Shown: positions 2,249 to 20,175 of the stretch, in pieces
Numbering within the stretch: the stretch's first letter is position 1
Layout: the number at the start of each line of letters is the position of its first letter
Assembly: GCA_020630395.1 (NCBI GenBank)
Contig: JAHDBM010000049.1
Span: 1 to 20,811, forward strand
DNA: 20,811 nt
Direction: 5' to 3'
Origin: Flavobacteriales bacterium
GTDB lineage: Bacteria > Bacteroidota > Bacteroidia > Flavobacteriales_D > CAJJDF01
Position numbers and translations under genes: made by a program
The notes under the pieces: model-generated
What the model was told of the DNA's origin: nothing
Databases searched by the model: none
Seen by the model: only the letters and a program-made list of their open reading frames with translations

Positions 2249-3433
2249 ATGAAGTCTATACTAAATAGTATTTTAATATTACTTGTTTCTATCTGTACCA
2301 TTTATACGGTTGCATTTTCACAGCAATTTGTACCAGGAACATCTGTTTTAGATACAACAGGTTATGTAGAATATATTCCTGGAAATTTACCAGTTATAAT
2401 TTCGGTACCGCACGGAGGATATCTAGAACCTAGTTCAATACCACAAAGAAATTGTAGTGGTTGTACTTATATAAGAGATGCTTATACACAAGAGCTAGCC
2501 AGAAGCTTACAAGTTGATTTTTTTAACAAGACTGGTTGTTATCCTCATGTAATAATTAATCTATTACATAGAAATAGATTTGATGCTAACCGTTCAATTG
2601 CAACAGCTGCCGATAGTAATGTAACGGTAGAGCAATCCTGGTATGCTTATCATGAATATATAGATTCGGCAAAAGCAAAAATTACTAGAGACTATGGAAA
2701 AGGGTTATTTATTGATCTTCATGGTCATGGCCACACCATCCAAAGATTAGAATTAGGATATACCTTATCAAAAGCTCAACTTCAATTGTCCGATTCTGCA
2801 TTAGACTCTCTTCAATATGTAAACATGAGTAGTATAAAATCATTAACACAAAACAACTTATTGTCTTTATCTCACTCACAATTATTAAGAGGACCAAATA
2901 GTTTTGGAACGCTTAATGAAAACAAAGGAATACCAGCAGTTCCTAGTATTCTAGATCCATTTCCCGTAGGGACAGAACCCTATTTTAGTGGAGGTTACAA
3001 TACCGATCGTCATGGTTCAGTTAATGGAGGAACGATAGATGCTATTCAAATTGAATGTAACCAAGATGTCCGTTTCGATTCGTTAACAAGAGCATTATTT
3101 GCTGATAGTTTAACTGATGTAATAAATGAATTTATTAATTTACATTATATTAATTCGTATATCGGGAGTTATTGTAATTTGACAAATAACATTTGTAAAA
3201 ATAACTTCGAAGAAATACTGATATTTCCTAATCCTGCTAATCAAACAGTATATTTTAATACTAAACAAACTCACCTTGAAGTTTCCATTTACGATTTAGT
3301 AGGAAATCATATACATAAGATGAAACTAGTCAAGAATACAATGGATATTAGCTTTTTAAAAAAAGGAGCTTACTTATTTTATATATCAAAAGACAATAGG
3401 TTTATTGGGGTCAATAAAGTAATAAAACGATAG
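2249..3433 (+). CDS. Secreted T9SS-sorted protein; N-terminal domain resembles a zinc hydrolase of the carboxypeptidase-like superfamily (N-formylglutamate amidohydrolase / AstE-AspA / M14 type)
   Basis: Signal peptide MKSILNSILILLVSICTIYTVAFSQQ. Motifs ISVPHGGYLEP, IRDAYTQELAR and FIDLHGHGH. The C-terminal ~75 aa (ILIFPNPANQTVYFN…IYDLVGNHIH…GAYLFYI) match the Por/T9SS C-terminal sorting domain pattern. Confidence 0.6.
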   Translation: MKSILNSILILLVSICTIYTVAFSQQFVPGTSVLDTTGYVEYIPGNLPVIISVPHGGYLEPSSIPQRNCSGCTYIRDAYTQELARSLQVDFFNKTGCYPHVIINLLHRNRFDANRSIATAADSNVTVEQSWYAYHEYIDSAKAKITRDYGKGLFIDLHGHGHTIQRLELGYTLSKAQLQLSDSALDSLQYVNMSSIKSLTQNNLLSLSHSQLLRGPNSFGTLNENKGIPAVPSILDPFPVGTEPYFSGGYNTDRHGSVNGGTIDAIQIECNQDVRFDSLTRALFADSLTDVINEFINLHYINSYIGSYCNLTNNICKNNFEEILIFPNPANQTVYFNTKQTHLEVSIYDLVGNHIHKMKLVKNTMDISFLKKGAYLFYISKDNRFIGVNKVIKR

Positions 3434-3443
3434 GTTTAGATTA

Positions 3444-3481
3444 AAAAACACCCCTAACAAATTAGATTTATTAGGGGTTTT
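3444..3481. terminator. Terminator hairpin between convergent genes
   Basis: ACCCCTAA / TTAGGGGT 8-bp stem (3450-3457 and 3471-3478) with a 13-nt loop. A-rich on one side, TTTT on the other. It sits between the stop of the plus-strand gene (3433) and the stop of the RHS gene (3489). Confidence 0.5.
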
Positions 3482-3488
3482 CATGTGT

Positions 3489-6400
3489 TTAATAATTATT
3501 AGTCATAATGTATCCAAGTGGTGTACCGGCAGGCGCAGGCCTAGTAGGTACGATAGGAGGTAATGGTTTATCTCTAAGACCAACTTTTTCAGCAAAAGGT
3601 ATTAGAGTAGATGATTTCCAATTTTGATACCATTCTGTATGAGAAGCAGCTTCAGCAATGTCCCATCCTAATCCTAGAGCCTTGGCATATGGGTGTTTAC
3701 CTTCACTAATTAATGCAACTCCAACTTTAATTGATGTAACAAAACCGCTCTGCCTTCCTTGTCTATATTGGTTTAAATCATCAAGAACTCCAATCGCAGT
3801 GCCGGCCTTACCTAGTCCATTTGCAACCTTGTTAACTTTGTTTTGTAAAATTACGGTATGTCCTCTTGCACCATATTTACCCCAACTGGATCCATTTAAT
3901 TTATTTCTTCTCCACTTACCATCTACTAGTGATCGCCATTTTCCATCTTTTATTAATTGACCTGAGAAAAAGTTTAAGGAATGACCAGTCCATGCCATGG
4001 TTTGAGTAATATAATCCCACCTATTAAAGGCTGGTTTATGTATAATAACATTTGTAACTGTAGACATTTGGTAATACACACCATCATCTCCTCTTACTAT
4101 TTCAGGGGCATGATCTTCTTGATAAGCGCTTATAGGACAATCTGGGCAAGGAGGATCATTGTGTGATCTATGGTTTAATGCAGTAATAACAAGTCCTTTT
4201 CCTGCACCTGCAAAAAAGTTACCTCCACTTATAACACTCGTAATTCCGCCAGATGCTGCACCAGCCGCATAGGCTTCTAATGCACTTGCATTATCGGTTA
4301 AAGATCCAAATCCTGAAGAGACAACAGAAGTTAGGAATCCACTTCCAAAACTACCACCTTGCATTATTGAACCAAAGCCACCTACCATACCGTGTGCTCC
4401 AGCTCTTAGTAACTCTTTTCCTGCCGAACCAGTAGCTCCAATTGCTGATCCTATACCAGATGTAGCAGCAGAAGTTACACCACCTACAATAGCACCAGCT
4501 ATAAATCCTGTGGCAAAACTACCACCTTGCTTATGATTACTTATTCCTTGAACAATTCCACTAATTACAGCACCAATTCCTATAGCAGCTATAATACCTA
4601 AATCTCCTTGAGGATCGGCATACATAGCAGGGTTATTATTCATACTTACATAAGGAGAATAAGCCGCAACTGCATAACCCTTTGGATCTACTTGATACCA
4701 TCTTGCCATAGATGGATCATAAGTTCTATATCGGGTAAAACCTAAATTTAAATCGAAAGAAAATTCGTATTCGATTCCATTATATAAATAATTGTTTTCA
4801 TGTCCATTAGATGCATTTGTGTTATTAAGGCTTGTTCTAATGTTGAAATGCTGCATCCCATAAGGATAGTAATCGGTTGCTTGAAGTATTTCATTGTCCT
4901 CGATAGATCCATTATCGTTTAGGTCGCTATATACTGCTCGTGTATTGCCTAAATGATCTTGTATGTAGTAATCATATCTTGGCGTACTGTGTATGTTGTT
5001 AACTCTATAAAAACCACCATTAATGGTTTCATCATTATTTGTGTAAATAAAGCTGCCAATATAATCTGTAACTTCAGTTATCGATCCATTGTGAGTAACC
5101 GTTTTTTGAAGTCTACTTCCATTAGCATCAAATAACCATTGTATTTTACCAGTTTGATCTGATTTTTCTATTTCATATGGAAGGTCAAAATAATTGTACA
5201 AAATATTAATTTGTCTACTAGGATCATATGTAATATTACCATCTAAGTCATATAAATATTTCTCATTACCATTCCAGGAGTATTGATTTTTAGACTCATA
5301 ACCTGGAGAATGATGGGTATAAATAGGAGAATAGTTATATTCCCTAATGCGCTCAAGTCTATTATAATAATTGTTCTCATACATATAATATAAATCATCA
5401 ACTTTTACTCTATTATAGCCTTGAACAATATTATTGTAGCCTACACCATATCGTATTAACCTTTCCAAATTTCCTTGATCATCATAACTATAAGAACAAT
5501 CATATAAGCCCACAGATTGATTACCATTACCCTCAGAGTAAATAGCTTCAGTTAATCTACCTATGTAATCGTAGCCATAATCATAGTTTTTCCAGGATTC
5601 ATTTCTGTGTTTCCATCTAATAGCTGATAGTTTACCATCTCGGTAGGTGTTCACACCAGTTAAACTTGTATTATTTGTTTCATAAATGAATGACAAACTA
5701 AAAATATCATCAGCTGTTGGGTTTGCATTTATACCCACTAAATGATTTTTTTCGTAGGTATAATCTATTGTTTGAAGCGCTCCGTTATTATTAACTCCGT
5801 TTTGACTTTGACTAATTGTTCCATCAGCATTAAAGGTATTATGTGATAAATGTTCTGTGTGTCCATTAATGGTTTGGTAAGCATCAGTAGCTATGCCTTG
5901 AGGAGTATAAGCTGTTTCATTTTCAATTACAACTGGATTGGCGTTAGCTGTTTTTCTTTGTGTTACACGCCAACTAATTATGTTACCTGCAAAATCATAG
6001 ACATAATTATCAGTTACTTTGGAACCGCCAAGGTGATTGTCTTTTTCTACACGTAATAACCTTCCATATGTATCGTAATCATTTATAGTTACCAGTCGAT
6101 TGGAGGTTAATTGAAATCCATTAAACATGGCAGTTTCTTGTCGAACCACTTTGTTAATGCTAGTTCCAGAGTTACTGTAAAAAGTTTCATTCCAGATATT
6201 TGTTGCTAATAAATTTTCAACATTGGGTTCTCCATTTAAATCGATATCACCCGATCGAATTAATCGCCCTTTCGTGTCATATTCGAATACGTTCCATTTA
6301 TTTAAACTGTTTAATTTGCTGGTTTGTTTTGCGACTAGCTGGTTAAGACTGTTATATCTAAACTTAACTATTCCTTTATCAGGAGATTTTAACTCTATTA

Positions 6401-9400
6401 AATTACCTTGCCCATCATATTTTTTTAAGAAAACAGAATTTGTATTACTTGTAGAAACAGAGGGAGGTATTACTTTAATTATTCTAGCTTTATGATCGTA
6501 TTGTGTATAAGCATCTAGATGATCGTTAACTGTTTGATAGGTGGTTCTTGCTAATACTGTTTTTCCTTCTACGTCATTAAACGTAATTGTTTTTTTTCCT
6601 TCAGGTGTTATTACTGTTGTTTTAAATAGTTTACCCTCTGGAAAGAACCCTCCATTATCTAAGTTTTTTACATTATCTGTGGATAAATTGTGTCCGTATG
6701 AATAATAAGTTGGTTCTCCTTGTGGAGGTGTTACCTCCATTAATCTACCTAATGGAGACAATTCATATACATATTGTGTATATTTTGCTATAGCTGGATC
6801 AGGGAATAATTGAAATTGTCCATTGTTTCCACCTTCAAATTCTTGATATTGGAAAATATCTTTACCTACTTCATCATAATGTGTTATGTTAACCAAATCT
6901 AGTCCATTTACCGAAGCATTTTCATCTACCGCAACAATAACTCTTCCAATACCATCAAAGTAATTTCGAGCAGCTTTGTCTGCTACAGGGTTTTCGGGAA
7001 TTTGTGTGTAACTCACATTTGTTCTTGTATAAGGGTAATCATCATTTTTTATATCGCCCATGTGGTAGCTGTGGGTTGTAATGATGTTACCTCTAGCCTC
7101 TGTTTTGGTGATTAGTCTTCCAAATTGATCATAAACAAAATCAATTTCTTCGCCACTAATAGAGGTTATTTTAGATACTAATCGGGTATTGGGATAATAA
7201 TCGCTATAAGATGTATTACCGTTAAAAGATGTACTAATTAATTTATGATCTTCGTAGGTCATAACTTGTTCTCCCCATCCTGGTTTTTTTGTTCTTAAAA
7301 TATTTCCGTCTCCATATTGAACTAAGGTATCAGTTGGTATCCAACTCCCTGTATAATCGTCTTCTACGTTTTGTGTTCCTAAAAATTTATAGCCAACATG
7401 TGGGTATAGTTTAGGCATAAATAGACTTTGTGTGTTCAACATATGGCGGTAATCAATAATACCGTATACATCTACTAATGGATGATAAGATGCAGTATTC
7501 ATCACGCCATTTTCATCAAAAAGTTCGAATTTTGTTTTTACACCACCAGTTTGTATTTTTTCTCCATTTACTCGTTTAAACACCTCTGTTTTTAAAGGTA
7601 TGTTTTGCAAGTTTAACGCCAGTAAAACTTCATCTGCCAAGGTACTATCATCTACTAAATCAAACGCATAAGAATATTCTTCTTCTCTTCTATTACCATT
7701 ACTGTTTGTTGTTACTTTAGCTTCTGGTGCAATGTGTGGGTTAATTGTATTGTAATAATAATCGGTTCTAACATCAACACCATCTTTTATCGACTCTATG
7801 GTTTGCAATTGATAGTAACCATCTTTAATGTAATATTCACTACACGATATGAGGTTTACTTTATGGGTTCCAAAACCTCCGTTATCTCTTCTAAATGATA
7901 CAATTTCTCCAATCTTGTACAGTTTTTCGGTTGAGTGTAAATTCCAATATGAATCGTAGGGAGTATAAGTTGTTTTGGCAACTTCATTATTAAAGGCATC
8001 TACCATAATTATTTCAGATACTTGGCCCGTAAATGGATTAAAAATTGGAGGTGTAAAAGGAAACTTATGTTCATTAGGAGTAACCCAATCTTGCATTTCT
8101 TGTTTAAACTTATAAATGGTTTTTCCATTTCTAGGAAGATGAACTTCCTTTACTTCTGTATAAGCAATAGGTGTCCCGTTATATCCGCTTAACGGCATAA
8201 AACTTTGATCACTAAAATATATTCTCTGAAAATATGCATCACGTGCCCATGTAGGTAAGTTTACTCCATCATCTCTATGGTGAAGGTTCCAGCTACTTGA
8301 ATTTGGGACTTCTCTTTGAGCGTAATCAAATTTATTAATATTCATGCTAAAAATAGGTTCAAATAATCTTTCACCACTAGACTCTGTAGAATTACCAACA
8401 GTATATTCAAATTCAGTTATTATATCATTATCAGTTTCTTCAATTCCATCTTCAACTGTTATCCTTTTTATTCTAAGTCCAGGCGCAAGCTTGTTAGGGT
8501 CAGGTACGATTGATGGTGTTTTTAGTTTTAAAGAACCTGGTCCACCTTCTATAGTAACTTTAAATTTATAATTAACATTAGCAGTTAATCCTTGTAATGG
8601 AGATGTACCATCTTCTTCTTTAATTGGGAATGTAATATTACCCGAGTAAGTTTCATGATTTTGGATATTAAAAGACCGAGTAAGTGCTAAATCGTTAGTA
8701 GCAGTTTCAAAAATTTCGATTGTCATGTTTGCTCGGCCATCAATAGTTGGGTCGTTACAACCTTCTATGGTAAAATCTTCTAAGTCGTATGGAGATCCTG
8801 TATTGTTGTGATTATTATCAATTGGATCGTTTCCTCCTACAGGTGTAAGATGCCCACCATTTCCACCATCATTTATAAAATGATTAATAGCTAGATTCAC
8901 GGTAAACGTGCTATTTCTTAGTTCTTCCATTGAAGAAAATGTATAAGTAGCTTCATCTTCTAATTCATTACAACAAGCTAATTCACCATATTCGCACCCT
9001 TCAAGTAAAAAGCGAGTATAGAAATTAGATAGTTCTAAAAAAGAATATCTATGCCCTTCCCAATCATAAGAAGTTGAGCCTCCTGTAGGATATTGAACTT
9101 TTGTTAATACTCCATATTTTGCTTTTTCTTCATTTGCAGATCTATTGGCACCACCCTTATGTTTGACGATTACTTGATTTGTAACTGGGTCAACAAGTCT
9201 TTCTGTTCTTGATGGGATATTATCTGATCGGTAATTGTTTAATGATGCTCCATTGTAATATCCCATTTCATCTGTAGCTTTTGATAACCTACTAGGAAAG
9301 TATGGCTCGTTATCATTAGATGAGTCGGGAAAATGATACGTTAATTCGTAGGGAGGCATTTGTATGCTTTGATCACAAGATACCTCTTGAATACTTTTTA

Positions 9401-10679
9401 GAAATAAATTTTTGTTTTCGGCAACATCAGTTGGGTTGTTCAATAAATTAATATCATCATCATGGGTATATTCGTATGCTAAAATATATTCTTTACAAAA
9501 TGAATTATTACCACTATTAGCTGATGCACCAATGTTTTTAGTAATAATTTTATTTAGTTCTCTAGGTATATCGTATGGTGTATAAGGTATAAAGTTTGAT
9601 GCATGGTTACCCCATCTATCTATGTCTTCACGAGCATTTTCATATTCAAATTCAATAATGTCAAGGTCACTTTCAATTTTTTGTAATCGAACTCCTTTAA
9701 TAAGGTTTACATCATAATTATGTCTAGCACCATAATCTTCTATACGATAAGAAAATCTTGTGCTACTTGTATTAGCAGCAACTGATCCATTTACCCCATA
9801 AATACTGGTAGGGCTTCTTTCTTTTACCCCATTAAGATTTCTTGAATCATCAGTTATTGATTCGTCAATTTCATAATTTTTGAATCGAAAAGTATTTCTT
9901 GCAGGCGTTTTTACTAAATAAGATTCTTGTTCATAATAAAAGTTTAGATTATAGTCTAAATTATAATCTTGCATAGCAAGCAAGTGCCAACTTGTAATGA
10001 TTGTGTCTTTTATTATTCTATTTCTATTTTTAACGGTATTTCCATTTTGGTCTATAGTATATTCATATTGTTCTGTTGAGCTTGTTTCAATTGCATATCT
10101 TCCTGCAAACCTTCCAAAAAAGTAGTTGGTTCCATCAACATCAATAAGAGTAAAGCCAATTATTTTTCCATTTTCTCTAAATCTACTTATTCTTATATCA
10201 CTTCTTGGAATACAGTGGGCGTGTCCATTCTTATCAAAATAAAATTTACCAGACAACCCGTTTACATTAAAGCTGTACATATCTGGCTCAAGATCTTTGT
10301 TAATATGGGTAGCTTCATGATCTGAGTCATCATCAAGATCAAATACTAAGTTATTTTGATATCCTGTTAGGCCTTCGTCATCTGGTTTATCTTGTACTTC
10401 TCGTGATATTACTCCTCCAGCTATAAGTGACCAACCTTTTCCAACCATTGATGCAGGAGTGTTAACAATTAAGTTTCCTTGGTGGTAAGATAAACCAACA
10501 GATGTAGCTAATGAGCCTTCTTTAACAGATCCAATTGGAATACTTATGTTTGGACTTCCTGTATATTGACTAACAGGACTATTACCATATGTTCCCAAGC
10601 TAGCTGCCGAAGGAGATGCTTGAGAAAGAAATTGATTAATAGTGATTATAAAACTTAAAATTAAAAGAGTAGACTTCAT
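3489..10679 (-). CDS. RHS/YD-repeat polymorphic toxin (2396 aa): N-terminal signal peptide, C-terminal variable toxin region after the DPxGL motif
   Basis: Signal peptide MKSTLLILSFIITINQFLSQA. Dozens of YD-type repeats (YVYDFAGNII, YSYDDQGNLERL, LYDLDGNITYD…). RHS core end …RYRTYDPSMARWYQVDP…NPAMYADPQGDLG at ~nt 4598-4633. Downstream of that come a Gly/Ala/Ser-rich hydrophobic segment and a ~230-aa domain I cannot assign. Confidence 0.9.
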   Translation of the reverse strand: MKSTLLILSFIITINQFLSQASPSAASLGTYGNSPVSQYTGSPNISIPIGSVKEGSLATSVGLSYHQGNLIVNTPASMVGKGWSLIAGGVISREVQDKPDDEGLTGYQNNLVFDLDDDSDHEATHINKDLEPDMYSFNVNGLSGKFYFDKNGHAHCIPRSDIRISRFRENGKIIGFTLIDVDGTNYFFGRFAGRYAIETSSTEQYEYTIDQNGNTVKNRNRIIKDTIITSWHLLAMQDYNLDYNLNFYYEQESYLVKTPARNTFRFKNYEIDESITDDSRNLNGVKERSPTSIYGVNGSVAANTSSTRFSYRIEDYGARHNYDVNLIKGVRLQKIESDLDIIEFEYENAREDIDRWGNHASNFIPYTPYDIPRELNKIITKNIGASANSGNNSFCKEYILAYEYTHDDDINLLNNPTDVAENKNLFLKSIQEVSCDQSIQMPPYELTYHFPDSSNDNEPYFPSRLSKATDEMGYYNGASLNNYRSDNIPSRTERLVDPVTNQVIVKHKGGANRSANEEKAKYGVLTKVQYPTGGSTSYDWEGHRYSFLELSNFYTRFLLEGCEYGELACCNELEDEATYTFSSMEELRNSTFTVNLAINHFINDGGNGGHLTPVGGNDPIDNNHNNTGSPYDLEDFTIEGCNDPTIDGRANMTIEIFETATNDLALTRSFNIQNHETYSGNITFPIKEEDGTSPLQGLTANVNYKFKVTIEGGPGSLKLKTPSIVPDPNKLAPGLRIKRITVEDGIEETDNDIITEFEYTVGNSTESSGERLFEPIFSMNINKFDYAQREVPNSSSWNLHHRDDGVNLPTWARDAYFQRIYFSDQSFMPLSGYNGTPIAYTEVKEVHLPRNGKTIYKFKQEMQDWVTPNEHKFPFTPPIFNPFTGQVSEIIMVDAFNNEVAKTTYTPYDSYWNLHSTEKLYKIGEIVSFRRDNGGFGTHKVNLISCSEYYIKDGYYQLQTIESIKDGVDVRTDYYYNTINPHIAPEAKVTTNSNGNRREEEYSYAFDLVDDSTLADEVLLALNLQNIPLKTEVFKRVNGEKIQTGGVKTKFELFDENGVMNTASYHPLVDVYGIIDYRHMLNTQSLFMPKLYPHVGYKFLGTQNVEDDYTGSWIPTDTLVQYGDGNILRTKKPGWGEQVMTYEDHKLISTSFNGNTSYSDYYPNTRLVSKITSISGEEIDFVYDQFGRLITKTEARGNIITTHSYHMGDIKNDDYPYTRTNVSYTQIPENPVADKAARNYFDGIGRVIVAVDENASVNGLDLVNITHYDEVGKDIFQYQEFEGGNNGQFQLFPDPAIAKYTQYVYELSPLGRLMEVTPPQGEPTYYSYGHNLSTDNVKNLDNGGFFPEGKLFKTTVITPEGKKTITFNDVEGKTVLARTTYQTVNDHLDAYTQYDHKARIIKVIPPSVSTSNTNSVFLKKYDGQGNLIELKSPDKGIVKFRYNSLNQLVAKQTSKLNSLNKWNVFEYDTKGRLIRSGDIDLNGEPNVENLLATNIWNETFYSNSGTSINKVVRQETAMFNGFQLTSNRLVTINDYDTYGRLLRVEKDNHLGGSKVTDNYVYDFAGNIISWRVTQRKTANANPVVIENETAYTPQGIATDAYQTINGHTEHLSHNTFNADGTISQSQNGVNNNGALQTIDYTYEKNHLVGINANPTADDIFSLSFIYETNNTSLTGVNTYRDGKLSAIRWKHRNESWKNYDYGYDYIGRLTEAIYSEGNGNQSVGLYDCSYSYDDQGNLERLIRYGVGYNNIVQGYNRVKVDDLYYMYENNYYNRLERIREYNYSPIYTHHSPGYESKNQYSWNGNEKYLYDLDGNITYDPSRQINILYNYFDLPYEIEKSDQTGKIQWLFDANGSRLQKTVTHNGSITEVTDYIGSFIYTNNDETINGGFYRVNNIHSTPRYDYYIQDHLGNTRAVYSDLNDNGSIEDNEILQATDYYPYGMQHFNIRTSLNNTNASNGHENNYLYNGIEYEFSFDLNLGFTRYRTYDPSMARWYQVDPKGYAVAAYSPYVSMNNNPAMYADPQGDLGIIAAIGIGAVISGIVQGISNHKQGGSFATGFIAGAIVGGVTSAATSGIGSAIGATGSAGKELLRAGAHGMVGGFGSIMQGGSFGSGFLTSVVSSGFGSLTDNASALEAYAAGAASGGITSVISGGNFFAGAGKGLVITALNHRSHNDPPCPDCPISAYQEDHAPEIVRGDDGVYYQMSTVTNVIIHKPAFNRWDYITQTMAWTGHSLNFFSGQLIKDGKWRSLVDGKWRRNKLNGSSWGKYGARGHTVILQNKVNKVANGLGKAGTAIGVLDDLNQYRQGRQSGFVTSIKVGVALISEGKHPYAKALGLGWDIAEAASHTEWYQNWKSSTLIPFAEKVGLRDKPLPPIVPTRPAPAGTPLGYIMTNNY

Positions 10680-10703
10680 TTTTTTCTTTTTATAAAATGT
10701 TTA

Positions 10704-11864
10704 TTAGTTGTTTTTGATAAATTTTGAAGTAATAATTTGTTGATTAACATTTACTTCAATGGTGTATATTCCTCCAGAAAGTGATTCAAGGTTTAAGAAT
10801 TTTGTTCTACCTTTTATTGATGTCTCTAGCTTAGTTTTTCCTTGTGCATCTATTACTTTTATAGAAAAATCTTCCATTAATTCTTCTGAAAGCGTAACAG
10901 TAATATTATCTATAGTTGGGTTTGGGGATACAGCAATATTTATATTAGGGTAATAATTCTCGTCATAAATATCTATTGGTTCTGCATCACAATCAATATT
11001 TTTATTTCTTAGTATTTTACTCTTTGTAATTAAGTTTGCGGCTAATATTCTTCTAATTTGGCCATGAGTAAAACTATATAAACACTTATCATTAGTGTTA
11101 TCCATGTAGTTAAAGTAAAGCTCTAGTTTTCCGTCTATTGTATTAACATGTCCGTCTGCAGGGCATTCGTCATTTGGGTCATTATGTAGAGGCGTGTCAT
11201 ATACTTTATCATCTTTTCCATTTTGATACCATAAATCATATAAACCCATAGAATTTCCTAGTAAGTGGATAAGTGTAGCACCTTCATTATAGCGTTTAAA
11301 CTTTGCTACCTCTTGCATACCAAAAAAACTTCTATTAATTGTTACATGAGTGTTTTCTATTTTCATCCATGGCATTAAAGACCAACCAGCAATTGTATCA
11401 TTAAGAGGTAGTATTGTAACAATTAGGAACTCATTAGGTTTCCAAAAAGCAGTGTCGAACCTTTGTAAAATGAATTTTGAGTATTCAATGCCTAATTTGT
11501 TGTTTTTTTTGGCTAAACAAAACGTTATGCTTGGCAATCCATCAATTTGAAAAGCTTCATTAACTTTATTTAATTGATCTAGTATATTGGTATGAGTTAA
11601 TTTGTTTTTTTCAGCTCCATAAACTTGATGAAATACAACTGGAATTGTTTGATCTTTTATTGCACCTCTAAAGATGTAGTTCTCAATTTTTTGCTCAATT
11701 TGATTTTTTGTTTTTTTTATTGAATCATTTTTTAATTGTTCAGATTCCTTTTTTTGCGTTTCATAATTTCTGGGAACAATAGCACTTTGAGCATAACCTA
11801 AAGTAGATTCTAACATTAGTAGAATATAGGTTAAACAACATAATATCATTTTTTTTGATTGCAT
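10704..11864 (-). CDS. T9SS-sorted M43 (cytophagalysin/pappalysin)-like protein with degenerate zinc-binding motif (probable pseudo-peptidase)
   Basis: Signal peptide. M43-type motifs VYDTP…C…NYMDNTNDKC…FTHGQIRRI. In place of HExxHxxGxxH it has HLLGNSMGLYD, which lacks the catalytic Glu and the second and third His. C-terminal T9SS CTD (IAVSPNPTIDNITVTL…GGIYTIEV). It sits 24 nt upstream of the RHS gene on the same strand. Confidence 0.6.
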   Translation of the reverse strand: MQSKKMILCCLTYILLMLESTLGYAQSAIVPRNYETQKKESEQLKNDSIKKTKNQIEQKIENYIFRGAIKDQTIPVVFHQVYGAEKNKLTHTNILDQLNKVNEAFQIDGLPSITFCLAKKNNKLGIEYSKFILQRFDTAFWKPNEFLIVTILPLNDTIAGWSLMPWMKIENTHVTINRSFFGMQEVAKFKRYNEGATLIHLLGNSMGLYDLWYQNGKDDKVYDTPLHNDPNDECPADGHVNTIDGKLELYFNYMDNTNDKCLYSFTHGQIRRILAANLITKSKILRNKNIDCDAEPIDIYDENYYPNINIAVSPNPTIDNITVTLSEELMEDFSIKVIDAQGKTKLETSIKGRTKFLNLESLSGGIYTIEVNVNQQIITSKFIKNN

Positions 11865-12179: not shown

Positions 12180-12438
12180 TTTTAAATTCCTATCCAGATT
12201 CGAATTGGGACTGTAGAGTTTAAGTCTACTATCTCTGCCAATTGGATTAGAGGGACATTGTTGTAATCAGAGCGGGTTAAACAGCTAGCTTTTTATTAGC
12301 TTAAAAGATTTATCTGCTTATTTAGGAATTTCACAAGTTACATTGAGTAGAATTCGGGCTGAAATCTAATTTTTTAACATATGTAAAATTTATTGTGACT
12401 TTTTAGTCTTTCATTTGTAGTAGCTAAACTTATACAAT

Positions 12439-12849
12439 ATGAAATCACTTAATAAGAAACAAATTGGATGCTATGCTATGTTTATATTAATGATACTTTC
12501 CGCATCTTTTAAAATTCTACGTTATGGGCCATCTGTACATTTTTATGTTTATCCTTTACCAGATATAATGTTAAACTCTGTTGGATATATAGAGCTTATT
12601 TGTGGAATTTTATATCTCATTGGAGTTAAAAAAGTATCATTTAGAGTTTATGGAGGCATAATTGTAATACCTCTATTGATTGGAGCTGTTGGCTCTCATA
12701 TTGCGTTTGGATGGTTCAATTTGTTTGATGGAATAAGTGAACCTTTTCACTTTACTTTACCATCATTTATTATTTTATGTCTTGCCATTTGGATTTCACA
12801 TAAACCTATTGTAAAATTTGTGAAGTCAGGCTTTAAAATGGTTGAATAG
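12439..12849 (+). CDS. Small polytopic membrane protein, DoxX-like
   Basis: 136-aa ORF with 4 predicted hydrophobic helices. The …GYIELICGILYLIG… segment resembles DoxX-family proteins. Confidence 0.45.
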   Translation: MKSLNKKQIGCYAMFILMILSASFKILRYGPSVHFYVYPLPDIMLNSVGYIELICGILYLIGVKKVSFRVYGGIIVIPLLIGAVGSHIAFGWFNLFDGISEPFHFTLPSFIILCLAIWISHKPIVKFVKSGFKMVE

Positions 12850-12897: not shown

Positions 12898-12972
12898 TAC
12901 AGAAGGAGAGACTCGAACTCTCAAAAACCTGATTCTAAGACAGGCGCGTATGCCAAATTCCGTCACTTCTGC
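12898..12972 (-). tRNA. tRNA-Leu(TAG)-like with Leu-type D-arm and A73 but only a 5-nt variable loop (atypical)
   Basis: Minus-strand read: GCAGAAG-TG-ACGGAATTTGGCATACGC-G-CCTGT-CUUAGAA-TCAGG-TTTTT-GAGAG-TTCGAGT-CTCTC-CTTCTGT-A. 75 nt. The D-arm closely resembles bacterial tRNA-Leu (…CGGAATTGGTAGACGCGC). Anticodon UAG. The long variable arm expected for Leu is absent. Confidence 0.5.
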
Positions 12973-14560: not shown

Positions 14561-14888
14561 TAGTTTAAAAATGGATATAAAATCAGTTCATATTTTCGCA
14601 TAAAGTTACATATCGTCCTTGTTTATCAACATAATTCGATTGATAAGCACTCGGTCGAAGCTCAAGGCAAAAAAGAATATGTAAACTGTTTCTAGTCATT
14701 ATTATACAAAGGTATATAAAATAATTTACTGAATGATGATTTCTTTTATCTCACGAATATCTATTTAAACATGACGAATATCTATTCAATTTAAACAGAA
14801 ATAGACTACCTCTTTACTAGTGCTATGTTCTACAGTAGTTTTAGACATAAGTTTTTTAAAATTAAAGTTTAATATAAACCATTATAAT

Positions 14889-15347
14889 ATGAAGTATTTA
14901 TTAATTGCTGTAGTTGGTCTTGTCAATATAGGTTACAGCCAAAATAGTGTAAATAGTTCCGGAGGAGATTTATCGGGATCGGGAAGTATTAGCTATAGTG
15001 TAGGCCAAATAACAACTAAAACAATAGCTAATTCAGGAGGAACATTATTCGAAGGAGTTCAAAGAGCCGAAGATCAATACACAACTGGAATTATGACTCC
15101 ATCTGTTGTTAAAATTGAAATAGTAGCCTATCCTATTCCGACAAGTGGAAATGTAACACTAAAATCGAGCGGTAATACAACCATGTCTTATAGCTTATAT
15201 AATAATCAAGGAGCATTACTATTATCAGGTGTACTTAATAATGGGTCTACAATTATAGAAACAGAACACTTAAGTAATGGGATATACAATTTAAAAGTAA
15301 CAGGAAAACATAATCTAAATAAGAATATCAAAATAATTAAAAACTAA
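14889..15347 (+). CDS. Small secreted protein with T9SS C-terminal sorting domain
   Basis: I start at the internal Met (MKYLLIAVVGLVNIGYSQ signal peptide); the ORF track begins at 14820. C-terminal region VKIEIVAYPIPTSGNVTL…GIYNLKV matches the T9SS CTD pattern. Confidence 0.6.
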   Translation: MKYLLIAVVGLVNIGYSQNSVNSSGGDLSGSGSISYSVGQITTKTIANSGGTLFEGVQRAEDQYTTGIMTPSVVKIEIVAYPIPTSGNVTLKSSGNTTMSYSLYNNQGALLLSGVLNNGSTIIETEHLSNGIYNLKVTGKHNLNKNIKIIKN

Positions 15348-15349
15348 GC

Positions 15350-16300
15350 GTGATGAAAAAATTAATAACAATATTAAGCGGAATAATGCTCATGGTAAAC
15401 AGCTTTTCCCAAGCACCAGAGAAATTTAGCTACCAAGCTGTCGTACGTGATGCAACTGATAATTTAGTAGTGAATAGTACGACTCCTATTAAAATAAGTT
15501 TATTAAAATCTACTATTACTGGGACAGTAGTTTATGAGGAAACACACACACCTACTACAAATGCAAATGGTTTATTAAGTATTGAGATAGGTGGAGGAAC
15601 CGTTTTAAGTGGTATTTTTGAAAACATTGATTGGGGCGGAGATAAATATTTTGTTAAAACAGAAATAGATGTAGATAACAATGCAAGTTATGATGTAACT
15701 GGAACAAGTCAACTATTAAGTGTCCCTTATGCTTTGCATGCAAAAACAGCAGATAGTTTAGCAGGATTATCTAGTGCTAACTTAGCTGATCTAATAGCGT
15801 TAGTAACGCCACCTCAAATAGGAGATTTTAGACATGGAGGAATTGTATTTTGGATAGATCCATCAGATCCATGGAGTGGTTTGGTTTGTGCTGTGGATGA
15901 CCAAACTGCTGGTACTACAGTAAGATGGTCTAATAACACTTCTGTTACTGGGGCTTTTGATACCATTATTGGAAGTGGACAATCTAATACAACAATGATT
16001 GTTGCCTCTCAAGGTTTAGGAGTATATGCAGCTAAAATGTGTGATGATTTAACGTTAAATGGATTTTCAGATTGGTTTCTTCCTTCAAAACACGAGTTAA
16101 ATGAAATGTACATTAATAAAACAACTGTTGAAAATGCATCTATTGCAAATGGAGGTACTGGGTTTGGTCTTCATTACTGGAGTTCTTCAGAGATAAATGG
16201 AAATGCAAATCTAAGTGTTATGCAATCTTTTTCTTTTGGGGCTCAATATAATGCTGCTAAGTTGAATTCAGCCAATGTTAGAGCTGTAAGAGCTTTTTAA
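15350..16300 (+). CDS. Secreted protein with C-terminal DUF1566 (Lcl C-terminal domain-like) module
   Basis: Signal peptide MMKKLITILSGIMLMVNSFSQA. Begins PEKFSYQAVVRD. C-terminal …LNGFSDWFLPSKHELNEMYINK…HYWSSSE resembles DUF1566. 3-nt gap to the upstream gene suggests an operon. Confidence 0.6.
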   Translation: MMKKLITILSGIMLMVNSFSQAPEKFSYQAVVRDATDNLVVNSTTPIKISLLKSTITGTVVYEETHTPTTNANGLLSIEIGGGTVLSGIFENIDWGGDKYFVKTEIDVDNNASYDVTGTSQLLSVPYALHAKTADSLAGLSSANLADLIALVTPPQIGDFRHGGIVFWIDPSDPWSGLVCAVDDQTAGTTVRWSNNTSVTGAFDTIIGSGQSNTTMIVASQGLGVYAAKMCDDLTLNGFSDWFLPSKHELNEMYINKTTVENASIANGGTGFGLHYWSSSEINGNANLSVMQSFSFGAQYNAAKLNSANVRAVRAF

Positions 16301-16390: not shown

Positions 16391-16437
16391 GCAGAAGGAA
16401 CTATTTATTGTTTCTTCTGCTTTTTTTGTTTCTGTTT
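16391..16437. terminator. Terminator hairpin, usable in both directions, between convergent transcription units
   Basis: GCAGAAG-(17 nt)-CTTCTGC followed by TTTTTTT on plus, and by a T-rich tract in minus sense. It overlaps the last codons (KQ-rich tail) of the minus-strand TPR ORF. Confidence 0.5.
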
Positions 16438-16896
16438 TACTCGTTTGTTTACTTCATTTAAGTAATTCATATAATCACTATTATACGTTTCAGTTTTAGC
16501 CAACTTAATAGTTTTTATGGCCTTTTTATACTGATGTTTATATTCATATAGCAGAGCTTTTTTTGCATAGATTACTCCTTTATCAATTCCTTTAATCGTT
16601 AATGTGTAATCAATTAACTTAAACGCTTCTTTATATTTTTCTAAAGATATTAGAGAAGAGATATAGTAAGGGTAAATTTGTAAGCAATACATGTCGGCTG
16701 CTAATGCATCCTCATAATAATCAATAGCTGTTATATAGTCCTTAAGTTGTTCGGCAAATACACGTCCTTTTAATAAAAGAGCATGTGCTTGATCATCTCC
16801 ATACGATAAAGCATAATCCAATGCTTCCATTGTTTGTGGCAAATCGTAGGGGTAATGATCTATTGCCTCTAATAAATATTTTGTTGCAAGCGTCAT
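16405..16896 (-). CDS. TPR-like repeat protein with Lys/Gln-rich C-terminal tail; last gene of the RtcB-PrfH cassette
   Basis: 163 aa. Helical repeat pattern with Tyr/Ala/Leu periodicity (…ALLLKGRVFAEQLKDYITAIDYYEDALAAD…). Its start overlaps the prfH stop (ATGA). Confidence 0.5.
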   Translation of the reverse strand: MTLATKYLLEAIDHYPYDLPQTMEALDYALSYGDDQAHALLLKGRVFAEQLKDYITAIDYYEDALAADMYCLQIYPYYISSLISLEKYKEAFKLIDYTLTIKGIDKGVIYAKKALLYEYKHQYKKAIKTIKLAKTETYNSDYMNYLNEVNKRVKQKQKKQKKQ

Positions 16897-17555
16897 GTTA
16901 ATTTAAATTTTTCTCCTTTAAAAACTAAGGAAGCATTCCCTCGTTCTAATTGAAGATGATTATTCCATTTTTGTTCAATTGTTTCTTCTTTTTGTTTCCT
17001 GTTTTTGGCCTCAATTTTTTCTTGCAAACGTGCAATAGCAAGTTTTTTATTCTGCAATTGAGATCTACTGTCACTCGAAACAGCCATTATCCCAGTTGGT
17101 TTATGAATAACTCGAATAGCCGAACTTACTTTATTGGCATGTTGGCCTCCAGGTCCAGAACTTCTCATTGCTTGAAACAATAAGTCTTTCGATTTTAGAG
17201 ACAATGCAGTTTCTGTATTTATCTGATTGCAACCAATAAACCAGTTTTTTCGTTTATGATTTTTTCTAAAAGGAGAGTTTCCAATCCATTGTATTGAACC
17301 TAACCAAGGTTGTATAAATGTTGCTACTTGTTCACCTTTTATTTCAATAGTTATTGACTGAAAGCAATTGTCGTATTTACCTCTAATCATTTCTTTTATC
17401 GCCACCTTTATATTACTGTTTTGGCATTTTTTTTCGAAATAATTAAAAGCTTTATATACGAACCATTCACATTCTGATGGCCCCCTACCTGCTGTAAATT
17501 GTATAGTTTTTGTGTTCATTTTAATTCGGTTTTTCTGATAATAGTTTGTTTCCAA
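16893..17555 (-). CDS. prfH: Peptide chain release factor H (PrfH / RF-H), GGQ-containing
   Basis: …MRSSGPGGQHANKVSSAIRVIHKPTGI… is the class-I release factor GGQ peptidyl-hydrolase motif. The ~205-220 aa size is typical of PrfH. It is paired with rtcB as in described rtcB2-prfH loci. An alternative start MNTKT at 17519 would sit 1 nt after the upstream stop. Confidence 0.8.
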   Translation of the reverse strand: METNYYQKNRIKMNTKTIQFTAGRGPSECEWFVYKAFNYFEKKCQNSNIKVAIKEMIRGKYDNCFQSITIEIKGEQVATFIQPWLGSIQWIGNSPFRKNHKRKNWFIGCNQINTETALSLKSKDLLFQAMRSSGPGGQHANKVSSAIRVIHKPTGIMAVSSDSRSQLQNKKLAIARLQEKIEAKNRKQKEETIEQKWNNHLQLERGNASLVFKGEKFKLT

Positions 17556-18066
17556 TTATTTCTTTGTTTAGTGCTAATAATGCAATAGCTGCTTGAACTG
17601 CCCAGCACTTATCACTAGAATGTATATTCGAATAAAAACTTAGTAGTTTATCTGGTCGCACTATTTGCCAATCATCAATTAATATAAATGGTAGATTAGC
17701 TGATTCAAAAAAATCAATTGTTATTCTTGTTTCTCTATCATCATCCAGACTAACTATTTTTTCATATCGTCTAAAATTTTCATTGCTAGGTCTATTGTAA
17801 TATCGCGTCCATACTTTTTTGAAGTTTTCTGCAAGTAAAATTGTCATTACTTGTGGAACATTTCTTGGATTCACAAACAAATCAATATCCTTGTGGTCAT
17901 GTGCATGTTTATATTCTGTATGATTTTTAGGAGACATAAAGTGCCAAGCCCAACCGCCAGAAATAATTACCAATGGTTTTATTTTTTCTAAAATTTCTAA
18001 GCCTTGATTAATTCTATAATCCGGCCATTTTTCTCCATATCTTTTTTTGTTATGTGGTGCTCCCAT
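17521..18066 (-). CDS. Nucleotidyltransferase-fold protein (minimal NTase-like), unknown specificity
   Basis: 181 aa. VIISGGWAWHFMS…(13 aa)…HKDIDLFV fits the hG[GS]…[DE]h[DE]h pattern of the Pol-beta-like NTase superfamily. It lies between rtcB and prfH on the same strand. Confidence 0.45.
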   Translation of the reverse strand: MGAPHNKKRYGEKWPDYRINQGLEILEKIKPLVIISGGWAWHFMSPKNHTEYKHAHDHKDIDLFVNPRNVPQVMTILLAENFKKVWTRYYNRPSNENFRRYEKIVSLDDDRETRITIDFFESANLPFILIDDWQIVRPDKLLSFYSNIHSSDKCWAVQAAIALLALNKEIIGNKLLSEKPN

Positions 18067-18115: not shown

Positions 18116-19507
18116 TTAATAATTCATTCGGACAATTTTTGGTTTAAAACTGCCCACTACTTCAACCAATTCTTCTTGGTTTTTCATTACACGATTAATG
18201 TTTTTATATGCCATAGGCGCTTCATCAATTCCTCCACCAATAAGTTCTACTTCGTGCAACTTCAATTGCTTTTTAATTTCACTTTTGGTAAAATGTTCAT
18301 GACATTCACTTCTGGAATAAGCTCTTCCTGCTCCATGAGATGCAGAATTTAAACTCCCCTCATTTCCTAGCCCTCTTACAATAAAACCAGGAGCTGTCAT
18401 AGAACCCGGAATAATTCCCAGTTCACCTTTGGCTGCTGGAGTAGCACCTTTTCTATGAACAATACATTCTTTACCATTTATTATTTCTTTCCATGCAAAA
18501 TTGTGATGGCTTTCTATAGTAGCAAGCGTTTTTGTTCCTAGTAGCTTTTCCATTCGTTTATGAATATTATCATGACATGCTTTCGCATAATCACCAGCTA
18601 AGTTCATGGCTAACCAGTATTCTTGTCCGTCATGTGTATTTAAATCAAGCCAAGCTAAATGCTGCACTTGCTTTGGTAACGGACATTGTTTGGTAGCCAA
18701 GTAGGTGTATTGTTTTGCAATATTTGCTCCCAACCCACGTGAACCACTGTGCGATAATAACCCAACATAATCTCCAACAGGTAAATCCCACTCTTTGTTA
18801 GGATCCGTAATGGAAACCGTTCCAAACTCCACAAAGTGATTTCCTCCTCCAGAAGTTCCAAGCTGTTTATACGCCTTTATTTTAAGTCTTCTTAATAAAG
18901 GAATATCTTGAAATTCTGTTCTCGAAAATATTTCATGATCATGTTTTACCTTATGCGTTTCGTACATTCCAAATTTGGTATGCTCCGCTAGGTGGTTTTT
19001 AAACTGATCCTTTTTTCCTTTTAAGTACGAAACCGGAATAGGAAAAATAGAAAGCGCCATTCTACATCCAATATCAACTCCAACTCCGTAAGGAATTACA
19101 GCATTATCGGTTGCAAGAACTCCTCCAATTGGCAATCCATAACCATGATGCGCATCTGGCATTAAAGCACCTTGCACAGCAACAGGAAGTTTTAAAGAAT
19201 CGAACAGTTGGTACTTTGCTGCATCAGCAATTTCATCTTCTCCGTAAATTTTAAAAGGCACACGAGTTGATTTTAATTGGTGCTTTTTTATTTCTACAGG
19301 ATCTTTTAATGCCTCAGCAACTTTTCCCCAAATGTGATTTCCTTCATACTTTTCAGGATTAAGAAATACATCTTTTGCTTCGTTTAAAATCTTCTCTTTG
19401 CTTTCTTTTTTTCGGTATCTACTTATTTGACCTAGTGTTATATTAATCGTATTGTCTTGCGGGAATCCTAATTTTATTAGGTCTTTCCCTTTTAGTTTCT
19501 TTCCCAT
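18116..19507 (-). CDS. rtcB: RtcB-family RNA 3'-phosphate ligase
   Basis: RtcB signature blocks: GVDIGCRM, HHGYGLPIGGV, HSGSRGLGANI, GGNHFVEFG, IVHRKGATPA, ASHGAGR. 463 aa, with an N-terminal extension relative to a ~408-aa RtcB. Confidence 0.9.
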   Translation of the reverse strand: MGKKLKGKDLIKLGFPQDNTINITLGQISRYRKKESKEKILNEAKDVFLNPEKYEGNHIWGKVAEALKDPVEIKKHQLKSTRVPFKIYGEDEIADAAKYQLFDSLKLPVAVQGALMPDAHHGYGLPIGGVLATDNAVIPYGVGVDIGCRMALSIFPIPVSYLKGKKDQFKNHLAEHTKFGMYETHKVKHDHEIFSRTEFQDIPLLRRLKIKAYKQLGTSGGGNHFVEFGTVSITDPNKEWDLPVGDYVGLLSHSGSRGLGANIAKQYTYLATKQCPLPKQVQHLAWLDLNTHDGQEYWLAMNLAGDYAKACHDNIHKRMEKLLGTKTLATIESHHNFAWKEIINGKECIVHRKGATPAAKGELGIIPGSMTAPGFIVRGLGNEGSLNSASHGAGRAYSRSECHEHFTKSEIKKQLKLHEVELIGGGIDEAPMAYKNINRVMKNQEELVEVVGSFKPKIVRMNY

Positions 19508-20175
19508 AATGTATCTATTATACTTCTTGACGAAGTGTTTTTAAAACGAGCTAATTGTTGATTAGATAGATGTCTATCTTTTCTTTTTTTTAGCAATTCG
19601 TTTATGTATTTGTATCCATACTCCAAGCCTATGTTTGCTTCGTAATACCCTTTCTTTTCTAGTTTATGCCATAACAAAGACTCTTCACTAATAAGACAAG
19701 GATCTATTACTTTAACATGCGTGTTGTAAGCTCTTGTATATTTTATTTTGTAGGCGTTTTTTGGTATTTTGATATAATATCTAGTTCTCCACTTTTTATG
19801 TTCCCGATAGTTAAATGATGTACATAGTTTTTGCGCTTTTTTAGAGAGCTTTCCATATTGTTTTTTACTGATGGTTGGAAAATTTAGGTAGATCATTGCC
19901 TTAGATGTTTGATTATCCCAATGCTTTTCACATTCCTTTTTGTTTCTTCCCCAATAGAGTTTCTCTATCTTTTCGAAAACCTCTAATATGTATTGCTCAT
20001 TTTTATATCGTTCTACATTGGTTGTAATAACTATTTCTTTATACCAACCATGTCGAATAGGTTGTGCTAGTTTTTTATATCCTAGTGCTTTTTGTTCATC
20101 CCAATTTGCACGTATGTCTTTCCAAACTTGCCGAACCTCTTTTCGCCTGCGTTCTTTTATATGAACTGGTTTCAT
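19492..20175 (-). CDS. Highly basic Lys/Arg/Tyr-rich hypothetical protein; first gene of the RtcB-PrfH cassette
   Basis: 227 aa. No recognisable catalytic motif: no P-loop, no HGT/Tpt1 motif, no SAM-binding motif. Its stop overlaps the rtcB start by 16 nt, suggesting translational coupling. Confidence 0.5.
   Translation of the reverse strand: MKPVHIKERRRKEVRQVWKDIRANWDEQKALGYKKLAQPIRHGWYKEIVITTNVERYKNEQYILEVFEKIEKLYWGRNKKECEKHWDNQTSKAMIYLNFPTISKKQYGKLSKKAQKLCTSFNYREHKKWRTRYYIKIPKNAYKIKYTRAYNTHVKVIDPCLISEESLLWHKLEKKGYYEANIGLEYGYKYINELLKKRKDRHLSNQQLARFKNTSSRSIIDTLWERN

Follow-up and report, generated by a model that had tools for sequence, protein, structure and literature searches.

The closest described relatives of the locus reported here are the 'tRNA array units' or 'L-arrays', which, according to Santamaria-Gomez et al. 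2021 (PMC8421152), spread by horizontal transfer, add to the housekeeping tRNA genes as a supernumerary set, and occur in Bacteroidetes and other phyla. A unit has been defined as at least 20 tRNA genes at a density of at least 2 per kb (Tran et al., PMC4758250). [quoted passage not shown] Here, a tRNA array of a Flavobacteriales bacterium is described, together with the 20,811 nt on which it lies (contig JAHDBM010000049.1 of assembly GCA_020630395.1; this whole stretch is called the window). The main subject is one of its genes, a tRNA-Leu(UAG), hereafter the target, that is a real Leu-type tRNA gene without the long variable arm of class-II tRNAs.

The Anabaena array, located on plasmid pCC7120delta, contains four Leu genes (UAA, GAG, UAG and CAA) of 75–78 nt that are all short-armed, and long Ser(GCU) (90 nt) and Tyr (87 nt) genes. 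The main text of PMC8421152 never mentions the absent arm, nor does it mention PrfH or SPFH neighbours. Its Leu(UAG) shares with the target a 5-nt variable region, A73 and a G1.U72 pair, and has the D-arm GUGACGCAAUUGGCAGACGU. Both arrays are dense, with about one tRNA per amino acid and rtcB nearby, but that of the window is chromosomal, belongs to Bacteroidota, is shorter, is interrupted by insertions and has partly decayed. Its density (about 4.5 per kb over 2 kb) lies above the threshold for an array unit and its count (nine genes and 3–4 remnants) below it; intact arrays of Flavobacteriaceae carry 10–19 tRNA genes.

Read on the minus strand (12972 to 12898), the target is GCAGAAG UG ACGG AAUUUGGCAU ACGC G CCUGU CUUAGAA UCAGG UUUUU GAGAG UUCGAGU CUCUC CUUCUGU A, 75 nt in all, with the anticodon UAG in the loop CUUAGAA, and A73 as discriminator. 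The variable region between the anticodon stem and the T-stem is UUUUU, 5 nt, and falls short of the stem-loop of more than 10 nt that defines class II. Stem lengths are normal and both the D- and T-loops are canonical (G18G19, UUCGA). The Rfam covariance model RF00005 matches from end to end (model positions 1–71) with 48.4 bits (E 8.8e-8), against a gathering score of 29. Besides these Rfam scores, the family to which the target belongs was scored with a structure-free hidden Markov model (nhmmer); a profile of the 77 other members, from which the target was excluded, gives it 69.1 bits (E 4.9e-21), above the median of 67.0 for the family's own scores (46.2–75.7). Such a match is far beyond chance. 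The initial annotation had given the same coordinates, strand and parse (75 nt, UAG, A73, a 5-nt variable region) and had taken the gene for a Leu-type tRNA, with a Leu-like D-arm, lacking the class-II arm; the sequence and the covariance model both confirm this, and re-alignment revealed no long arm.

The target also has several irregularities. There is a G1.U72 wobble in the acceptor stem and an A10.C25 mismatch within the 3-bp D-stem, and the anticodon stem has a U31.U39 mismatch at its base. The D-loop has one extra U, which is also found in a metagenome-assembled genome (MAG) of Tenacibaculum. No CCA is encoded. Position 37 is A rather than the G37 (m1G37) typical of CUN-reading tRNAs; a tRNA with A37 is not a substrate of TrmD, which forms m1G37. 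In the window, ARAGORN called the eight neighbouring tRNAs but not the target, while it does call the target's relatives, as tRNA-Leu(tag), a point of some relevance for annotation.

A short-armed tRNA-Leu would, in the view of the initial annotation, be exceptional and resemble a mitochondrial-like, decoy or engineered-looking tRNA. The same design turns out to be common in cultured phages, in viral contigs of IMG/VR, in arrays of Flavobacteriales and Acidobacteriota, and in Anabaena. In a blastn search of cultured phages, the whole target aligned without gaps to genes of 74–78 nt annotated as tRNA-Leu(tag), carried by phages of unrelated families (Zobellviridae and T5-like Demerecviridae of Vibrio, T4-like Straboviridae of Cronobacter, and Aeromonas phage APT65), and a second search with the commonest variant of the family returned 80 records, 28 of them with at least 80% query coverage. 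The T5-like coliphage TrudiRoth has a tRNA-Leu(CTA) of 77 nt, to be compared with its two Ser tRNAs of 94–95 nt. These phage genes share with the target the D-arm, the CUUAGAA loop, the GAGAGUUCGARUCUCUC T-arm and A73, but usually encode CCA and are fully paired. IMG/VR was scanned for CTTAGAA followed, after a gap of 8–34 nt, by GAGAGTTCGARTCTCTC; among the 120 matches listed, the variable region is 5 nt long in 42, 7 nt in 3, and 11–19 nt in 75. Two further searches added little: blastn of the tRNA against E. coli genomes gave no match at E<=1, the query being short and the database very large, and blastn of the consensus against plasmids gave mostly matches of the 5' half to ordinary long-arm Leu genes and was uninformative.

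Among bacteria, a scan of the GTDB species representatives, restricted by its pattern to the short form, found at least 119 loci, many of them on megabase-sized contigs. About 45 are from Flavobacteriales or other Bacteroidota, about 60 from Terriglobales (Acidobacteriota) and a few from other phyla. Carriers among the Bacteroidota include Aquimarina, Kordia, Tenacibaculum, Tamlana, Psychroserpens, Wocania, Winogradskyella, Flavobacterium, Crocinitomix and Cytophagales. Overall, near-identical tRNAs show a patchy distribution across phyla, in phages of Vibrio and E. coli and in Flavobacteriales, Acidobacteriota, Planctomycetota, Cyanobacteria and others. The claim that bacterial tRNA-Leu is always type II therefore holds for housekeeping genes, as reviews state (PMC9976931), but not for genes carried by phages and arrays. 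The Flavobacteriales consensus is GCAGGAA UG GCGG AAUUGGCAUA CGC G ... CUUAGAA ... AUUUU GAGAGUUCGARUCUCUC UUCCUGU A, with which the target shares G1.U72, the D-arm, A73 and the absence of CCA.

Seventy-eight distinct short-arm Leu-type sequences, the target included, were aligned. Standard pairs occupy 99.2% of stem cells, and two-sided changes are seen in 14 of the 15 pairs that the search pattern left free. The covariation score is 0.673, against 0.201 for shuffled alignments (none of 500 reached the observed value) and 0.07–0.14 when the pairing partners were slid. The T-arm and anticodon loop were fixed by the search patterns and carry no conservation information. Judging from these 78 sequences, the cloverleaf with a 5-nt variable region is kept by compensatory evolution and is selectively maintained. 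It represents a large exception to the class-II rule, in phages and in mobile bacterial tRNA arrays.

As for its origin, identity between short- and long-arm sequences reaches 95.7% when the arm is set aside (e.g. locus L015 vs L055), and the closest long-arm relatives are tRNA-Leu(UAG) genes in which essentially the arm alone is different. This identity, together with the range of arm lengths in IMG/VR, shows that the short form derives from ordinary tRNA-Leu(UAG), in essence through loss of the arm; arms of intermediate length occur. The acceptor stem of the T5-like Vibrio phage VspSw_1 (GCAGGAA/UUCCUGU) is exactly that of the Flavobacteriales, which points to exchange between phages and arrays; two sequences are common to the viral and bacterial sets. 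The target has all the marks of the lineage: a 5-nt variable region ending in U48, the CUUAGAA loop, the GAGAGUUCGARUCUCUC T-arm, a Leu-type D-arm and A73.

A second family of short-arm UAG tRNAs was also seen, with the same T-arm and A73 and an ordinary 4-bp D-stem (GUAGCCCAAYNGGNAGAGGC); its members (L008, L020, L033, L036, L087, L105, L114, L142, L198, L200, L204 and others) are from viral contigs, Pyrinomonadaceae and Chthonomonadaceae. In phage VspSw_1 (MH925094; L002, 1678–2098), an unannotated region about 100 nt from the short-arm tRNA-Leu(UAG) matches GOLLD RNA (Rfam RF02032, 185 bits).

The amino acid identity of these tRNAs can be judged from their nucleotides. No variation occurs at U8, A14, A15, G18G19, A20a, U48 or A73 in any of the 78 family sequences, the target included, and all have the tertiary core U8-A14, A15-U48, G18G19, A20a, G18-U55, G19-C56 and U54-A58. 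Leucyl-tRNA synthetase (LeuRS) of E. coli needs those core elements and A73, while the anticodon and the long arm are dispensable and armless variants stay active (Giege and Eriani 2023, PMC9976931). Leucine identity of the lineage is strongly indicated by homology and by these intact LeuRS determinants. With canonical class-II tRNA-Leu the target shares A73, a 3-bp D-stem with G13/A22, A14, A15-U48, G18G19, A20a, a Leu anticodon, and an identity that is independent of the anticodon. It differs in the missing long arm, in having A37 for G37 and C32 for U32 (the host tRNA-Leu loop of E. coli/Shigella is UUUAGGU; PMC12482277), and in G1.U72, which occurs in about half of the short-arm family. 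Animal mitochondrial tRNA-Leu is of class I, has a short variable region, and bases its identity on A73 and A14 without an arm (PMC9976931), but the target has full D- and T-loops, no sequence relationship to it and no organellar context.

Other class-II tRNAs in the same arrays are informative on the purpose of the arm. All fetched loci were run through ARAGORN, which covers genes outside the search pattern. In the bacterial array loci, all 44 Leu(CAA) genes and 28 of 30 Leu(UAA) genes are short, while all 113 Ser genes and all 75 Tyr(GUA) genes are long. For cytosolic tRNA-Ser, the long arm has been called 'the major identity element', and bacterial tyrosyl-tRNA synthetase contacts the long arm, as in the T. 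thermophilus complex. The arm of Leu could thus be lost because bacterial LeuRS does not need it, and those of Ser and Tyr would be retained because their synthetases use them. Put most simply, a tRNA would be able to do without the arm only if its synthetase ignores it. This natural experiment agrees with the prediction from E. coli LeuRS in vitro. In the literature searched, the rule that Leu loses the arm is apparently unstated, and no explicit account of short-arm tRNA-Leu in phages or arrays was found; older subscription papers, such as the sequencing of phage T5 tRNAs in the 1980s, were outside that search, so that a prior description is possible.

Three calls with missing arms were noted in this comparison: a 71-nt 'Ser(CGA)' in the Anabaena operon on pCC7120delta (L246, 2430–2500), and, in each of two Flavobacteriales arrays, a 72-nt gene called as 'Tyr(AUA)' (L149, 7016–7087; L224, 7324–7395). 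They may be pseudogenes, or tRNAs of changed identity.

Taken as a whole, the sequence evidence makes it most likely that the target was built as a supernumerary short-arm tRNA-Leu for CUA, of the L-array/phage type, and that the lineage of which it is a member moves back and forth between the tRNA clusters of phages and bacterial tRNA arrays spread by horizontal transfer. The gene would be transcribed with its array, and CCA would be added post-transcriptionally. Host LeuRS, which would recognise the tRNA by its discriminator and elbow and not by its arm or anticodon, would then charge it with leucine, allowing it to decode CUA and probably also CUG. CUA accounts for 16.3% of Leu codons in the open reading frames (ORFs) of the window, so that a tRNA with a UAG anticodon would have work. 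By analogy with the Anabaena array, and considering the PrfH and RtcB neighbours described below, the array may be a back-up tRNA set for conditions in which translation is damaged or inhibited.

Several observations weigh against this reading, some for the lineage and some for the target copy. The independence of LeuRS from the arm is an E. coli result that is extended here to LeuRS of Bacteroidota by analogy, and in Aquifex aeolicus the orientation of the arm matters to LeuRS (PMC2377443). Charging in Anabaena is known for the set, three genes of which are pseudogenes, and does not extend to the short-arm Leu tRNAs individually. The search patterns limit, by ascertainment, what can be said of the breadth of the family and of conservation in the T-arm and anticodon loop. 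Scans near the array for sigma-70 promoters and for the Bacteroidota type (TTTG...TAnnTTTG) gave nothing convincing, Bacteroidota promoters being poorly covered by such scans. As to the copy itself, 67 of the 78 family members have no stem mismatch and ten have one, while the target alone has two. Its cloverleaf is predicted to lie 4.1 kcal/mol above the minimum-energy fold, the second-worst gap of the 78 (median 1.1). Its Rfam score is 12–18 bits below those of close relatives (60.6–66.3 bits), ARAGORN rejects it, and the array around it holds decayed genes and insertions.

From the sequence features just listed, the chance that the target is still functional is put at roughly even. The most serious alternative, with a probability somewhat short of that, is that it is a pseudogene: a short-arm tRNA-Leu(UAG) that once functioned, has ceased to be processed or charged, and remains in an array that is being dismantled. 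The A10.C25 mismatch is private to the target, and restoring G10 recovers about 4 kcal/mol in predicted folding. The adjacent Leu(UAA) gene is clearly dead (23.1 bits), an Arg-like neighbour has G33, further remnants lie at 1546–1681, and insertions have split the array. Against decay, the score on the family profile is above the median, and identity and tertiary nucleotides are all intact. The anticodon arm with U31.U39 is identical in a Crocinitomix genome (L201), so that this mismatch is better regarded as inherited and tolerated than as a fresh lesion. The single mismatches of the ten further members are also to be considered, and the Leu(UAG) of the Anabaena operon scores a comparable 50.3 bits with Rfam. 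The folding test is weak, since the cloverleaf is the exact predicted minimum in only 22 of the 78 members. The suggestion of the initial annotation that the gene might be a decaying copy thus has some support, from the two mismatches, the folding gap and the decayed neighbours, and is not established.

A role other than decoding has also been considered for the family, namely that it acts mainly on tRNA-targeting nucleases and toxins, for which it would be a decoy or sponge, with the loss of the arm and the C32/A37 loop tuning recognition. The arrays adjoin genes for RtcB and PrfH, which repair or rescue translation components damaged by nucleases (PMC9304027). For Anabaena, a sponge role is put forward as a possibility by the authors of PMC8421152, who also observed that operonic tRNAs were cleaved. 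In Shigella phage Sf14, CUUAGAA differs at three positions from the host loop UUUAGGU (PMC12482277), and loop changes of this kind have been linked to nuclease resistance (PMC12482277, PMC10264068). On the other hand, all LeuRS identity elements and A73 are conserved, which suggests selection on charging, and the operonic tRNAs of Anabaena are aminoacylated and were assayed in polysome fractions (PMC8421152). A decoy function is, moreover, compatible with decoding. We know of no toxin that recognises the long arm of tRNA-Leu. As a main function of the family, a decoy role is considered quite unlikely.

Far less probable still is charging by a synthetase other than LeuRS, with CUA read as another amino acid through recoding or deliberate mistranslation. 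The class-I body does drop one mark of tRNA-Leu, the tRNAscan isotype scores of the Leu(TAG) of phage Sf14 are close (Leu 67.4, Ile2 65.7, Lys 63.4; PMC12482277), and PMC8421152 describes two other operonic tRNAs of Anabaena with aberrant mobility in acid gels. However, four Leu-specific features, the D-arm, A15-U48, A20a and A73, do not vary, the sequences are, as noted, nearly identical to long-arm tRNA-Leu outside the arm, there is no G3.U70, and Leu isoacceptors with UAG, UAA, CAA and GAG anticodons are all of the short form in the same arrays. A UAG anticodon is also unsuited to those synthetases that read the anticodon. Practically no weight attaches to a misparse, that is, a concealed long arm or a true gene on the plus strand with an amber-suppressor CUA anticodon (the reverse complement of the anticodon loop being UUCUAAG): both were rejected, the first because just 5 nt lie between the anticodon and T-stems and 77 homologues align without insertion, the second because an Rfam scan of the plus strand at the site finds no tRNA even at E<=1, while the canonical GUUCGAGUC T-loop and every neighbouring tRNA are on the minus strand.

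The target, preferentially read as a supernumerary tRNA-Leu, lies in a dense cluster at 12028–14040 that contains nine tRNA genes and remnants (Table 1). In minus-strand order these are Ser(UGA), Cys, an Arg-like duplicate, Pro, Arg(ACG), Pro, Leu(UAG), a 136-aa ORF, the dead Leu(UAA), Gln and His. At every bacterial locus examined but one, the short-arm Leu(UAG) is likewise inside a dense array, of 3–31 tRNAs, and is often directly followed by a 75-nt Leu(UAA). The remnant of Leu(UAA) in the window, with anticodon loop CUUAAAC and broken T and acceptor stems, is in the position expected from intact arrays (Leu(UAG)-Leu(UAA)-...-Gln-His). In the Arg-like paralogue, the anticodon loop has changed from UUACGAA to GGAGAGC, G33 replacing the universal U33, and it is probably a pseudogene. 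Within the remnants near the SPFH gene, 1575–1612 can be aligned with short-arm Leu family members over their 5' half (nhmmer 18.4 bits, E 3e-5). From the gene order in Aquimarina (L137), these remnants are probably the far end of the original array, severed by an insertion that now separates them from its main part.

The exception is a Cytophagales MAG (L219, 6590–6664; CBDICC010000048), in which Leu(UAG) is the sole tRNA gene of the 8-kb block. It could hint that the armless form is used outside arrays in some Bacteroidota.

Table 1. Positions of the target tRNA gene, its array and the other features of the window
Feature	Position	Strand	Evidence and remarks
SPFH/Band-7 protein	131..1234	(-)	Pfam PF01145, 1.2e-25; borders far side of array in relatives
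Two degenerate tRNA-like remnants by SPFH gene	1546..1681	(-)	Rfam 30.9 and 33.1 bits; truncated arms
Lineage-specific insertion	2249..11864		T9SS-sorted FGase-like protein, 2396-aa RHS-repeat protein, T9SS-sorted 386-aa protein; Pfam Por_Secre_tail, RHS_repeat; ORFs 2249-3433 (+), 3489-10679 (-), 10704-11864 (-)
tRNA-His(GUG)	12028-12099	(-)	ARAGORN; Rfam 45.8 bits; downstream array end
tRNA-Gln(UUG)	12109-12179	(-)	ARAGORN; Rfam 52.4 bits; downstream array end
Decayed short-arm tRNA-Leu(UAA) remnant	12185..12256	(-)	Rfam 23.1 bits, below gathering score 29; non-cloverleaf fold
136-aa hydrophobic ORF	12439..12849	(+)	Between Leu(UAG) and Leu(UAA) remnant; matches no family; other arrays lack it
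Short-variable-arm (class-I) tRNA-Leu(UAG), target	12898..12972	(-)	Rfam, family profile, alignment, mismatch count, folding
tRNA-Pro(UGG)	13107-13179	(-)	ARAGORN; Rfam 34.1 bits
tRNA-Arg(ACG)	13204-13276	(-)	ARAGORN; Rfam 57.9 bits
Second tRNA-Pro(UGG), part of duplicated Pro-Arg unit	13364-13436	(-)	ARAGORN; Rfam
Arg(ACG)-like paralogue of 13204-13276	13526-13597	(-)	72 nt; ARAGORN 'tRNA-Ser(AGA)'; sequence comparison
tRNA-Cys(GCA)	13874-13947	(-)	ARAGORN; Rfam; upstream array end
Long-arm tRNA-Ser(UGA), 88 nt	13953-14040	(-)	ARAGORN; Rfam; upstream array end
Second lineage-specific insertion, between array and TPR/PrfH	14820..16300	(+)	T9SS-sorted 175-aa protein, 316-aa protein with Lcl C-terminal domain; Pfam
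TPR protein between PrfH and array	16405..16896	(-)	Weak Pfam TPR matches; recurrent
PrfH (release factor H, ribosome rescue)	16893..17555	(-)	NCBIfam TIGR03072 224.9 bits, cutoff 166.65; Pfam RF-1
orf181, 181 aa, between RtcB and PrfH	17521..18066	(-)	No family match; 66% identity in Tamlana
RtcB-family RNA ligase	18116..19507	(-)	phrog_1075, 9.7e-95
orf227, 227 aa, upstream of RtcB	19492..20175	(-)	Kept in Tamlana and Wocania, 52% identity

The protein-coding genes around the array place it on a Bacteroidota chromosome of the Flavobacteriales type, with a partly eroded array. Three proteins of the window carry a C-terminal sorting domain of the type IX secretion system (T9SS; Pfam/NCBIfam). 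A phage origin of the window was considered and rejected: most ORFs have no PHROG match, and Pfam and NCBIfam show T9SS sorting, RHS, SPFH and PrfH. Synteny was followed by tblastn of the window proteins against the fetched loci, in 8-kb blocks, so that counts are lower bounds. Among the 45 Bacteroidota loci, homologues of SPFH lie beside the arrays in at least 14, of TPR in 9, of PrfH in 5 and of RtcB in 10; RtcB also adjoins arrays in at least 9 of 63 Acidobacteriota-like loci. The RtcB homologues beside arrays of Tamlana, Wocania and L215 are 77% identical to that of the window, and SPFH homologues about 50%. In Tamlana the order is orf227, RtcB, orf181, PrfH, TPR, array, and in Aquimarina PrfH, TPR, array, SPFH; that of the window is the same, reversed. 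A recurrent Flavobacteriaceae island of orf227, RtcB, orf181, PrfH, TPR, tRNA array and SPFH can be recognised from these loci (L158, L191, L215, L137, L201). Homologues of the RHS/T9SS block, the T9SS/Lcl pair and the 136-aa ORF were found beside none of the 45 other Bacteroidota arrays, and these are therefore taken as lineage-specific insertions. In and around the array, the inserted DNA brings the 2396-aa RHS-repeat protein and four proteins that are secreted or T9SS-sorted.

In the window, RtcB is 4 kb and PrfH 2.9 kb from the array. The RtcB protein scores 151.3 bits with TIGR03073 (PrfH-associated RtcB; cutoff 271.8), and the NCBIfam RtcB models match below their curated cutoffs; on its sequence it clearly belongs to the RtcB family, as a divergent branch. 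As in the PrfH-RtcB2 rescue/repair module (PMC9304027, PMC9223846), a PrfH equivalog and an RtcB-family ligase are encoded on one strand, about 0.5 kb apart. Unlike in that module, a 181-aa ORF lies between the two, RtcB is under the TIGR03073 cutoff, and the pair is coupled to a tRNA array. No account of PrfH or RtcB physically coupled to a tRNA array was found in the literature searched. This coupling, as seen in Flavobacteriaceae, suggests that damage to the translation machinery is answered by repair and replacement together.

A wider interpretation is offered tentatively, as one that is probably not correct in all its parts together. The loss of the arm in every Leu isoacceptor, with the C32/A37 loop, would have been selected as the hallmark of a mobile 'spare translation kit' and would not be neutral trimming. 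Phage-derived arrays with PrfH, RtcB and SPFH would form one island that restores translation after attack by toxins that cut tRNA or rRNA, and the armless Leu tRNAs would escape a nuclease, or a modification dependency, that disables the class-II tRNA-Leu of the host. In a stronger form, armless tRNAs would be the sole CUN/UUR decoders in some Bacteroidota or Acidobacteriota (compare the lone copy in L219).

A few minor features of the arrays were also noted. A strong hairpin with a 10-bp stem, followed by a T-run on the minus strand, occurs at 14083–14108, directly upstream of the array's first gene; should this hairpin be a terminator, a separate promoter for the array would have to lie within the next 40 nt. 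The tRNA-Pro(UGG) genes score just 30–35 Rfam bits, with an atypical or shortened D-arm, here and in intact arrays (L146, L181 and L191; about 33 bits). Because the low score is also seen in intact arrays, the odd Pro design would be a conserved array trait rather than decay. The Ser(UGA) gene of the window scores 45.8 bits with the tRNA-Sec model RF01852, below its gathering score of 47, while its relatives reach 48–51.5 bits (L158, 4537–4622; L181, 1201–1287; L191, 6084–6169); with the anticodon UGA (Ser), these matches are most likely cross-talk between models. Just after the array of Tamlana (L158, 5686–5841), an Rfam tRNA match of 43.2 bits extends over 156 nt, and may represent a tRNA with an insertion or intron.

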